The notes beneath the pieces were generated by a model. The model was not told the origin of the DNA, did no database searches, and worked only from the letters and a program-made list of their open reading frames with translations. A DNA stretch of 64,000 nt from Schmidtea nova (Eukaryota). Made by a program: the position numbers and the translations under genes. Shown here piece after piece: positions 11,353 through 35,151 of this stretch. The stretch lies in NCBI GenBank assembly GCA_044892505.1, contig CM097883.1:126976001-127040000 (forward strand). Reading direction: 5' to 3'. Numbering within the stretch: the first letter of the stretch is position 1; the number at the start of each line of letters is the position of its first letter.

Positions 11353-13077
11353 ATGAGTAATAATAGTACAGGCAGCAGCAATAGCGGAAGTAACAGTAAT
11401 ACAGACAACATAAGCAGCCATAATTTTATAAAAACATTACCAATAGAATCATATAAGGGAGACCCTGAAAAGTTCGACGACTTTTTTGCCGAAATCGCAC
11501 AGTATGCAGAGGCTTGCGGATGGAAAACAAATGAATTAAAACAACGAATCCCATTATACTTAAAAGGATACGCATTACAGGCATACAATAATTTAGCATG
11601 TAAAGGCATTAATTATCAAGAGTTAGTTACAAACCTTAGAAAAGAAATAGTAATAGATCGAGACTTACAAAAAATAAATGTTCAAAAATTTAGAAGTAGA
11701 TACCAAGGAGCCAGAGAATCAGTAGGTGAATATATATACACGATAACAGAATTAGCAAAAAAGGCATTTGGTGCCGGAGATCACACTAGTAAATTAATTG
11801 AGGATCAGTTTTGGAACGGCATCCAAAAATATTTATACAAAGCATTAATTACAATTGAGTATGAAGACTTAAATGAGTTAGTTCAAAAGGCAAAACGTAT
11901 CGAAGCAATACAAAGAGATAGATTTAAACCAGAGGTAGATGCTGTAGAAATTGAAAAACAACCCGAGGTAAAACCTGAGTTGAGAAATAAGGATGACAGT
12001 ATTCCCTGGGAAGAAATGAAACAATTATACTTGAATTTTGTTAATAATAGAAGAAAATTTAGTCCTAATAGAAGCCAATCACCTGAAAACAGGGGAAGGT
12101 TTAATAGTCCAGGAAATAAAAATTTCGATAATAGAAATAGAAATAATTTTAAAGATAGTTATCAAAGAAATAATAATAGAGACAGTTTTAGAGACAATCG
12201 TTTTGATAGAGATAATGATAGAGACAACAGAGATAATTTTAGAGATAGTCGTTCTGGTTATAACAGAAACAGTTACAGTGGATATAATAAAAATAATAGA
12301 GATAGTCGCTTCGAATATAATAGAAGAGATAATAGATATAGAGATAATTCGAGAAATAGGCAAGATAGCCCAGTGAGGCGAAATACTTATAATAATGATG
12401 GTAGAGATAAAGTGAATTTTAATGGACAAATAAAATGTTATAATTGCCAAAAGTATGGTCACCTAGCAAAGGTATGTAATAAACCACGAGCAGATTCACC
12501 AATAAGAGTAAGATTTAAAAATGAGCCTGAGATAAAACAGGTAAATAGTGCTGAGCTTGAATCAGCAAATAAAGAAATAAATATATTAAGAGAGGAACTA
12601 AAAGAATTTAAAACTCAATATGGAAGACTTATTGAGAGAAAACTTGAAATGTCTATAAATGAATTTAGCACCTTTACAAATGAGGTAGATATTGATAATG
12701 ATGAGTTAAAGGAAATTAGAGAAGCAGATGAAATATTTCTTACAGAAGAAAATAGACAAAAAGAATTAATAGAGGAATTTAAAGAGGTATTGTATAAGCA
12801 ACCATTTGATAACAATGAAACATTAAGAGTAATCAATAAAATACAGGTTAATGGGATTGATTTAGAGAGACTTAGAAATTTAATACCAATGATGGTAAAG
12901 AGACAAAATGTAACGAGAGTATTTGAATTAGAAATAGAAATAAAAGAGATGTTGAAATGTTATGGAGAATATATAAGAAAAAATGAAAAATTGCATGAAA
13001 CACTAAATGTAACGATTGAATCAAATGATAATTATTTTTTTGTATTAAACAAAAGATGCATCCTTGCACTAAAGTGA
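11353..13077 (+). CDS. gag: Gag (capsid-like, R/N/D-rich linker, CCHC knuckle, coiled coil) running into the start of a ubiquitin-like domain
   Basis: YKGDPEKFDDFF..YLKGYA..RYQGARESVGEY capsid-like segment; CYNCQKYGHLAKVC at about 12436; likely ATG 11353. Confidence 0.9.
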   Translation: MSNNSTGSSNSGSNSNTDNISSHNFIKTLPIESYKGDPEKFDDFFAEIAQYAEACGWKTNELKQRIPLYLKGYALQAYNNLACKGINYQELVTNLRKEIVIDRDLQKINVQKFRSRYQGARESVGEYIYTITELAKKAFGAGDHTSKLIEDQFWNGIQKYLYKALITIEYEDLNELVQKAKRIEAIQRDRFKPEVDAVEIEKQPEVKPELRNKDDSIPWEEMKQLYLNFVNNRRKFSPNRSQSPENRGRFNSPGNKNFDNRNRNNFKDSYQRNNNRDSFRDNRFDRDNDRDNRDNFRDSRSGYNRNSYSGYNKNNRDSRFEYNRRDNRYRDNSRNRQDSPVRRNTYNNDGRDKVNFNGQIKCYNCQKYGHLAKVCNKPRADSPIRVRFKNEPEIKQVNSAELESANKEINILREELKEFKTQYGRLIERKLEMSINEFSTFTNEVDIDNDELKEIREADEIFLTEENRQKELIEEFKEVLYKQPFDNNETLRVINKIQVNGIDLERLRNLIPMMVKRQNVTRVFELEIEIKEMLKCYGEYIRKNEKLHETLNVTIESNDNYFFVLNKRCILALK

Positions 13078-13803
13078 GCAAATTAAAACGAATGGTAAGA
13101 GCCAAATGGCCAGGAACCATAGGAGAGAAAGATGTAATAAAATTATATTTTAACGGAATAGAATTATTAAGTGATGAGTACTTAATCGATTATGGGATAA
13201 ACCCAGTAAGTGATAATATTGTGGTAGCCACAGTAGAAAAACAAATGATCGATGAAATAGTGACGCCAGTACCGTCGGTTGAGCTGAGTATAAATGAAGA
13301 AAACGATTTTGATAGATTATTTAGGCTATGGGATAAATCACCTAGCGAAACAAAGAAATCAGTAATGGATGAAGAAATTATATTTAAATCTATAGATGAA
13401 AAGTATAGCAACTTACAAGAAACAATAGAAAGAATAGCTGAGGAAGCAAAAACAAAAGATGCAGAAACATCAAAACGAGGTAGAGGAAGACCTCGAAAAT
13501 CAGAAATAATAGAAAAATCGGAGAATAGAAAGACAGCAGAACGATTAAGAGAGATTGCAAATCAACATAAACATGAACAACCAGACGATAATAATGACGT
13601 AAACAAAATAAAAGAAGTAATAAAAGCGATAAATATTAAGCTATTTCCAGAAACAAAGCCAACAGTACTAATTAAAAATATAACTGAAAGGATGATGTTA
13701 ATTAAAAAGGATACTAAAGAACTAGCTACAGAGGAAGCAAATGAAAAAACAGTGTTAAAAATCCTGTTTAACACAGGAATAGATAAAGATAAAATAATAA
13801 CGG
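13032..13803 (+). CDS. Ubiquitin-like domain, AT-hook and N-half of a Bcl-2-like domain (frame -1 relative to gag; cut by the nested insertion)
   Basis: HPCTKVSKLKRMV..IKLYFNGIELLSDEYLIDYGI (cf. ubiquitin LIFAGKQLEDGRTLSDYNI); KRGRGRPRK; LFNTGIDKDKIIT. The frame opens at 13032 around a T7 run. Confidence 0.7.
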
Positions 13804-13819
13804 AGTAGTAGGATGTGAG

Positions 13820-33800: not shown

Positions 33801-34360
33801 TGGGACATTACTAAGCAGACTAGCTGTTTTTGTAGGAAAAAATCAAAATGATTGGGACTAATACATAAGTCAATGCACATACATTCATAATATCACTCCA
33901 AACGAAACAACAGGGTATTCACCGTATTATTTAATGTTTTTAAGAGAACCAGCAACACCAATAGATACAATATTTGAACCTCGAGTATCACAATATTTAG
34001 ATGCACCAGATTATGTCACACTAATGCAGGAAAAACTGCAAGAAGTGTATAAAGTAGCCAATCTAAAAGTCAAATATAGACAAGAACAGTACAAAGCCGA
34101 CTACGACAAAAATAGTAAACCACACAACTTTAAAGTAGGTGATAAGGTTAGACTTATGTCACCACAAGTAGGAAAGGGAAAGACAACAAAACTAGCAAGA
34201 CCATATAAAGGTCCATATGAGGTAGTAAAAGTAATAAATGAGAATTTACACTTACAAAAGCATAAGAACGAGGATCCAATAGTAGTACATGTCAACAGAT
34301 GCAAGTTGGCGGAAGCCGAGGTCACGATAGATAAACCTCACAAGTATAATCTAAGATCTC
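30880..34360 (+). CDS. pol: Pol: protease, RT, RNase H, integrase (RT motif YMND; stop at 33859-61 within integrase)
   Basis: LVDTGA (30937), PFGL, YMND (32206), TDAS, RTDH, HDGALGGH..C..C, D..TDKG..E; continues in frame after the TAA (GPY motif). Confidence 0.95.
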
Positions 34361-35151
34361 ATAACAAACTAATAATATCGGCTATCTTCTTAACAATCAT
34401 AACATTTGTTGGCTCAACCGAAACAATAGAATTTGACAAAGTATTAATAAAAATATCAACAAACGAAGTTAGAGCATTTATCATAAATAGAGGAGTAATT
34501 GATTTATACATGCAAACAACGAATGGGAAAAACCCAAAGATGATAAAAGGAAAAGACGACAGAACAACCAACGAAATCGAAAGAGGAAACTATTTTAATT
34601 TCACAAAACTAACACCTAATACAATATACAAAATCAGCATACAGAGAAACACAGATACAACAACATGGAGATGCAAAAAAATAAAAACAGAACAATTACC
34701 CAAGAATATAACAAAAAACCATAACATAACAAAAACACTCGATAGAATAAAAAGCACAACAACAACATCAGATAATATACTAAATAACACACCACATACA
34801 AACGAAATACCATCAAGCACTGGAATAGCCAAATTCCAAAAACAATACAATGCCAAAAAACAAAAACAAGAACCTATCAAAATAAGGCAAGGAAGACCAA
34901 TAGTGATACATAACTTAGAGGAACTACAAGCATTTCGTAAAGAGGATAAAAAGCCACATTGGCCGTATTATGTCATCACAACATCAATAATAGCATTAGC
35001 AGTTTTAGCTTTAATAACTAGCGTACAAATTTATAAAAGGTACAAATGGAAATGGCAGCGGTATCGGAGTCGACTGGTCAGAAATGTACCAGGGCATTTC
35101 CATTTGGGCAAATATATACCAGGTGAATATACAAAATCCACATTGGTATAA
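34361..35151 (+). CDS. Type I membrane module fused after integrase: signal-like segment, FN3-like domain, Thr-rich stalk, TM, basic tail
   Basis: KLIISAIFLTIITFVGS; FNFTKLTPNTIYKISIQ (FN3 E-F strand pattern); YYVITTSIIALAVLALITSVQIY-KRYKWK. Confidence 0.6.

Follow-up and report, generated by a model that had tools for sequence, protein, structure and literature searches.

The 64,000-nucleotide stretch analysed here (the window; Schmidtea nova, assembly GCA_044892505.1, contig CM097883.1, positions 126,976,001 to 127,040,000 of the forward strand) carries a Ty3/gypsy long terminal repeat (LTR) provirus with the enzyme order protease (PR), reverse transcriptase (RT), RNase H (RH) and integrase (IN) and an RT of the gypsy type. 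The provirus belongs to a compact, abundant, very young and recently active family of Burro-like GAG-ENV-POL retroelements, in which one frame of 3,038 aa specifies capsid, cargo domains and enzymes together with two predicted membrane proteins, the first of which is a class III-type fusogen. We consider it likely that the predicted product passes the endoplasmic reticulum (ER) membrane four times and is then cleaved into separate proteins.

Single open frame in natural copies

The family was sampled by a DNA search of the same genome across the junction between env anchor and protease; the best 40 of 452 candidates were scored, all 99-100% identical, and the 39 other than the window copy were fetched and used without any sequence repair. 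The whole region is spanned by 30 of the 39. One open frame was present in 10 of the 39 fetched copies (10 of the 30 whole-region copies), with 3,061-3,082 codons from stop to stop and 3,037-3,038 aa from the first methionine; these ten copies are 98.8-99.6% identical to each other, and copying has been recent. An env protein search placed 30 of 148 scored matches in open frames of 3,054-3,082 codons (counted by hand). Junctions were also free of stops in most copies, when both sides were represented: Gag/ubiquitin-like in 37 of 39, Bcl-2-like/signal/fusogen in 33 of 38, fusogen anchor/PR in 38 of 39, and IN/post-IN in 36 of 36. The order read directly from the open-frame copies is Gag, ubiquitin-like domain (Ubl), AT-hook, Bcl-2-like domain, signal, class III fusogen, transmembrane segment, PR, RT, RH, IN, signal, fibronectin type III-like (FN3) domain, stalk and transmembrane segment. 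The single open frame is the natural state of the family, and a preliminary description of the window, which had proposed one giant polyprotein with env between gag and pro-pol, is borne out by these unrepaired copies.

The pairwise ratio of nonsynonymous to synonymous differences per site (pN/pS) among the ten open-frame copies was 0.07 for the fusogen ectodomain, 0.11 for RT-RH, 0.10 for IN, 0.14 for Gag and 0.20 for the Ubl. The fusogen, as low in this ratio as RT-RH and IN, is under strong purifying selection.

A selection by env could favour env-bearing copies, and 150 copies were therefore selected by integrase only, as a check. Env was found at the expected distance in 116 of the 150 and farther off in seven; among the remaining 27, which were fetched, 11 hold a whole env, seven hold a part, and nine hold none in the 5 kb upstream. 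These nine are the one point in favour of the idea that the glycoprotein segment entered by chance, as a nested insertion or a captured viral fragment, and that the family transposes without it. The nine break at nine different points, however, all downstream of env, and none fuses Gag/Bcl-2 to the protease. Moreover, env has no target duplication of its own, the frame is open over both env borders, and env lies at the same position in a second family of this genome and in at least eight database polyproteins. The env counts among the integrase-selected copies refute a chance nested insertion, to which we give practically no probability. Outcomes named beforehand as fatal to the preliminary description were a lack of the glycoprotein segment in the other copies, a nested insertion with its own target duplication, and a segment without a class III fold; none of the three applies.

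The second family (L040-L045) has a single frame of 3,393-3,401 codons with the same domain order as the window family, to which it is 48% identical in RT-RH, 38-40% in the fusogen and 28-29% in Gag. It likewise has a post-IN signal and anchor, with a longer post-integrase ectodomain, and an exonuclease open reading frame (ORF2).

Organization of the copy in the window

Without a nested insertion the element is 13.9 kb long. Its two LTRs, of 1,035 nt each, start with TG, end with CA, differ by one mismatch and are bordered on both sides by a 4-nt target duplication. Every part that the preliminary description had listed, from Gag to the final transmembrane segment, was found at its place and in order; the extent given there, 11353-35151, placed these parts correctly and left out the LTRs and ORF2 (35615-37763). 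The features are as follows.

10069..11103, + strand: 5' LTR, TG...CA, 1,035 nt; target duplication upstream at 10065-10068
11106..11123, + strand: primer-binding-site-like sequence (putative role), beginning with TGG, 2 nt 3' of the LTR
11353..12500, + strand: Gag, with one CCHC zinc knuckle at 12430-12480 (zf-CCHC, E 3e-4, window copy)
after Gag, up to about 13,000, + strand: acidic coiled-coil-like region, the coil judged by composition
13010..13200, + strand: ubiquitin/SUMO-like domain, frameshifted in the window copy (Rad60-SLD, E 0.008)
13473..13502, + strand: AT-hook motif (E 0.076, under cut-off)
13740..13803, + strand: Bcl-2-like domain, portion 5' of the insertion (BH1 region, non-canonical)
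13804..28488, strand not assigned: nested palindromic element, 14,685 nt, foreign to the retroelement
28489..28640, + strand: Bcl-2-like domain, portion 3' of the insertion (BH2 region)
28740..28796, + strand: hydrophobic segment 1, predicted to act as an internal signal for the fusogen
28807..30420, + strand: predicted class III (gB / chuvirus G-like) fusogen ectodomain; stop at 29194-29196 in the window copy
30427..30483, + strand: hydrophobic segment 2, predicted membrane anchor of the fusogen
30886..31179, + strand: aspartic protease (RVP, E 2e-7)
31885..32997, + strand: reverse transcriptase and RNase H, Ty3/gypsy type
33253..34305, + strand: integrase (H2C2 finger, core, C-terminal SH3-like part); stop at 33859-33861 in the window copy
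34372..34428, + strand: hydrophobic segment 3, predicted to act as the signal for the second membrane protein
34417..34704, + strand: predicted fibronectin type III-fold domain
34705..34950, + strand: Thr/Asn-rich variable stalk with N-glycosylation sequons
34969..35151, + strand: hydrophobic segment 4, predicted to act as an anchor; basic tail; polyprotein stop codon
35615..37763, + strand: ORF2, with an N-terminal domain without assignment, an ISG20/REXO4-like exonuclease fold (36363-36950) and an acidic C-terminal region reaching into the LTR
37631..37644, + strand: purine-rich tract 5' of the 3' LTR, predicted polypurine tract
37645..38679, + strand: 3' LTR; target duplication downstream at 38680-38683

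In the window copy, the frame 29197-33861 is free of stops and comprises the fusogen (PF24664, Monjiviricetes_fusion, E 3e-71), protease, RT, RNase H and integrase, in agreement with the earlier observation of an uninterrupted frame over the glycoprotein anchor and the protease. This copy is dead and was damaged after it had inserted: its frame is shifted near 13,050 and again near 28,800, the insertion occupies 13804-28488, stops lie at 29194-29196 and 33859-33861, the RT active-site motif is substituted, and ORF2 is interrupted by a 136-nt tandem duplication (36226-36488). No primer tRNA was identified for the primer-binding-site-like sequence, and no tRNA genes were found when sought within the window.

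The best PDB match of RT-RH was Ty3 (E 5e-81; 13 PDB matches), and a homolog search with RT returned generic gypsy proteins at 28-50% identity, with no named references among the matches. On either side of the element lie other gypsy-type pol remnants that are more distant (28-32% identity), at 2509-4974 (- strand), 38981-40625 (- strand), 44245-45198 (+ strand) and 56308-57609 (+ strand).

The class III fusogen

A structure model of the fusogen, predicted from a 97-row alignment, reached a predicted local distance difference test (pLDDT) score of 88.7 and a predicted template-modelling score of 0.74. The best PDB matches of the model were all herpes gB (E 3e-14, TM-score about 0.45), and the best BFVD matches were G proteins of chu-like viruses (E 3e-38, TM-score up to 0.75); the 97-row profile searched against PDB gave 33 matches, all 33 to herpes gB and weak (best E 0.015), and a PDB search with the single sequence gave nothing useful. 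Twelve cysteines are invariant or nearly so among the 97 homologs. As a predicted model, the fusogen has a class III fold like that of herpes gB and chuvirus G, as the preliminary description had supposed.

The fusogen is matched by 997 proteins of the representative library. Twelve long matches were scanned, and env is followed by protease in one chain in ten of these, five of which run on through RT. A quick tree built from 119 G sequences gathers all 16 of those embedded in polyproteins into one branch of 22 rows (Shimodaira-Hasegawa-like approximate likelihood-ratio support 98), the other six rows being shorter proteins, probably fragments. This branch would be compatible with one old capture. 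G of chuviruses/Monjiviricetes (PF24664) is of the same sequence family and the same predicted class III fold as the window fusogen; viral G is a protein on its own, about 650 aa long, whereas the G of the window family is embedded, and the embedded forms have a branch of their own in the quick tree.

The predicted post-integrase membrane protein and ORF2

The domain following the integrase scored E 0.04 with Pfam fn3 in the window copy. Its predicted model (pLDDT 85; 11-row alignment) is a seven-stranded beta sandwich, which VIA aligned with an FNIII domain at Z 8.6 and a root-mean-square deviation of 2.7 over 80 residues, in a match list dominated by FNIII domains. ESM Atlas matches were of the FNDC5/FNDC9 type at 0.87-0.88, which is a lead only. 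A fibronectin type III fold has moderate support from this model.

No relatives of the post-integrase domain emerged from two word-indexed searches, which is weak evidence by the tool's own note. By inspection, a signal, an FN3-like motif and an anchor end the database polyproteins P0001, P0006 and P0151, which had been found through env; the post-integrase extension of P0014 is of a different, non-FN3-looking, membrane type, and P0019 and shorter matches stop too early to show such a region. Because BLAST of the post-IN domain against these database proteins and the second family gave no match, homology of the post-IN region rests on motif, topology and alignment. The database relatives P0001, P0003 and P0151 contain two to seven protease-like domains per polyprotein, some of these 3' of the integrase.

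The best match of ORF2 was ISG20 (E 4.7e-5), which we take to be of the DEDDh type, the motif positions being assumed likewise. On these positions, only the first Asp of the DEDDh catalytic set (four acidic residues and a general-base His) aligns in the window copy and in eight of ten fetched variants, the other two being degraded; the full set is kept in all three ORF2 copies of the second family. The ORF2 product of the window family is likely a catalytically dead nuclease, judging by these residues. ESM Atlas gave no usable match for the N-terminal domain of ORF2.

The 3' end of the element is variable. Among the loci L046-L055, the integrase end is 98-100% identical to the window in the eight of ten loci that hold it (one with a short piece of 88%), whereas the FN3 domain is 81-97% and the exonuclease part of ORF2 63-99% identical; ORF2 sorts into classes near 97%, 75% and 63%. 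A constant integrase beside a variable FN3/ORF2 region suggests cassette exchange or fast divergence.

Cargo domains between Gag and fusogen

The SUMO-like domain matched PF11976 at E 0.008 both in the window family (uninterrupted natural copy) and in the second family. The Bcl-2-like domain scored E 4.5e-4 in the window copy and E 6.5e-7 in an uninterrupted natural copy (30.3 bits, at a cut-off of 31.4), and aligns with BH1-BH2 of Bcl-xL (E 0.03), the BH1 being non-canonical.

Proposed polyprotein processing and alternatives

The polyprotein has only four hydropathy peaks, at aa 903, 1465, 2780 and 2979, and an alternating topology is therefore proposed. Gag and the Ubl and Bcl-2-like parts would be cytosolic; segment 1 would place the fusogen in the ER lumen, from which segment 2 would bring the chain back, such that PR-RT-RH-IN is cytosolic; segment 3 would export the FN3-stalk domain into the lumen, with segment 4 as its anchor. 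Host signal peptidase might then cleave after segments 1 and 3, and the element protease at the cytosolic joints. A flavivirus-style processing of the polyprotein is a reasonable inference. Particles could bud with the fusogen and pass between host cells. The FN3 protein would likely serve at the surface, either for attachment or to modulate the host; the Bcl-2-like domain likely dampens apoptosis, and the ORF2 product is likely a catalytically dead RNA-binding antagonist.

Several observations weigh against this proposal. The charges flanking the hydrophobic segments fit the topology clearly for segment 1 only, and weakly for segments 2, 3 and 4. The Ubl, AT-hook, Bcl-2 and fn3 scores are all under the Pfam cut-offs; Foldseek gave no FN3 match at E <= 0.001 (best E 0.003), and a Z near 8 is at the level that VIA calls common. 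The pN/pS ratios of the Bcl-2-like domain (0.77) and the post-IN region (0.66) indicate little purifying selection, these two values being based on few changes and non-independent pairs in copies chosen for being open. Without splicing or slippage, one frame yields Gag, Env and Pol in equal amounts. Finally, there is no N-glycosylation sequon in the fusogen ectodomain, and no R-X-K/R-R furin site anywhere in the polyprotein.

Two of these points lead to alternatives that alter single steps and are compatible with the rest of the proposal. Since equal Gag, Env and Pol are a poor ratio for particle assembly, the parts might be made from spliced or slipped messages of the one DNA frame, with no four-pass polyprotein in quantity, and a T-run slippery-type heptamer is indeed located at aa 561, directly after the Gag coil. 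The AT-rich frame contains 36 such heptamers, however, so that one is expected by chance; none of the four junctions tested has a shared stop or frameshift, and internal signal-type segments precede both ectodomains. We regard this alternative as unlikely. The lack of sequons and furin site in the ectodomain would also suit a fusogen whose retained role is intracellular or on the host side (ER budding, cell-cell fusion, or membrane tethering of assembly), without intercellular particles, and the portions of PMC13524379 and PMC6431247 available to us report no infectivity for such elements. Such a role would still be one at a membrane and departs from the four-pass proposal in the last step only; the class III ectodomain is complete, its cysteines are conserved, and purifying selection on it is strong. 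We rate this alternative as rather improbable, though worth keeping in mind.

Beyond the four-pass polyprotein itself, the flatworm elements might be true endogenous viruses that derive an entry machine of two proteins from this one chain: the gB-type fusogen encoded ahead of pol and, behind integrase, a captured FN3 protein that acts in attachment or as a trigger. The FN3-stalk and the pseudo-nuclease ORF2, both fast-changing, would then be a host-interaction cassette swapped on a near-constant gag-env-pol backbone. We put this forward tentatively, as a possibility with the odds somewhat against it. If the FN3 protein partners the fusogen, the family would show a retroelement that keeps attachment and fusion in separate proteins, and would offer a small, tractable system in which to ask whether flatworm env-bearing elements move between cells.

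Comparison with known elements

The layout was taken in the preliminary description for a distinct lineage; this novelty does not stand, as Arkhipova and Yushenova (2019, PMC6431247) had already described an in-frame env between gag and pol in the giant gypsy elements Burro1-4/GYPSM1 of planarians, and presented it as the first such case. Burro/GYPSM1 comprises Gag, a SUMO-like domain (PF11976), a BCL2-like domain, a mononegavirus-like env in frame and PR-RT-RH-IN in one ORF; for the IAP region of Burro1, an anti-apoptotic role is cited in PMC13465017. The window family shares the single ORF with SUMO-like and BCL2-like domains and env. It differs in size, with 13.9 kb and 3,038 aa versus >30 kb and an ORF1 of 4,873-5,140 aa in Burro, and in cargo: BIR, MATH, ankyrin and dUTPase, the cargo of Burro, had no Pfam match at E <= 1 in the scanned window pieces, and the window family has one CCHC knuckle, an FN3 membrane protein and an exonuclease-fold ORF2, of which the latter two are unmentioned for Burro in the part of PMC6431247 at hand. 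Size and cargo set the family apart from Burro as described, although it works on the same plan, and it is Burro-like rather than Burro proper.

Chary and Hayashi (PMC13524379) catalogued GAG-ENV-POL errantiviruses of the HSV/gB type in Platyhelminthes, Nematoda and Bryozoa. With these, including its close relative Smed_errantivirus_3, the window family shares a Ty3/gypsy pol, a gB-type env 5' of pol and multiple copies, and also env after gag, a predicted class III ectodomain with a hydrophobic segment on each side, conserved cysteines and near-identical intact copies. Domains I-II of the window env are identical to Smed_errantivirus_3 at about 174 of 246 residues (about 71%, counted by eye), compared with 31-38% identity between Smed_errantivirus_3 and the other five Smed elements. 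The window family has at least 148 env matches, versus three intact copies listed for Smed_errantivirus_3. The words polyprotein, fibronectin, exonuclease, accessory, Burro and Bcl are absent from the main text of PMC13524379.

An accessory 3' exonuclease ORF of the DEDD superfamily also occurs in the gypsy-like LTR elements Juno and Vesta of bdelloid rotifers (ORF3; Rodriguez 2017, PMC5408684), where it is of the DEDDy type, and ISG20-like in the window family. In literature listings and by word search of PMC13524379 and PMC5408684, we found no published description of an FN3 membrane protein or an ISG20-like ORF2 in elements such as the present one; further papers, supplements or Repbase entries may hold one. 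The post-integrase FN3 membrane protein (window family, second family and three database relatives) and the fast-changing exonuclease-fold ORF2 are, thus, apparently undescribed. To the known layout, the present data add natural-copy counts for the single frame, the finding that the fusogen is strongly selected, and a pair of cargo modules common to distant relatives.

The nested palindromic element

The insertion 13804-28488 has identical 14-nt inverted ends starting with AG, which we take to be of the Maverick/Polinton type, and a 6-nt target duplication. It is missing from all 39 fetched natural copies of the retroelement and, as had been supposed, can be removed as foreign. No ORF longer than 125 aa was found in its unmasked core (16800-25000). 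The palindromic element has at least 40 matches in the genome at 96-100% identity, mostly as inverted pairs. Each arm of the insertion contains a short frame with a Bcl-2-like match of its own (18228-18605, + strand; 23121-23492, - strand; Pfam E 0.0015, under the cut-off), and the insertion happens to lie within the Bcl-2-like domain of the retroelement. In another retroelement copy (L064, 3041-3855), the end of a palindromic element of this kind is inserted at a different site, within env.

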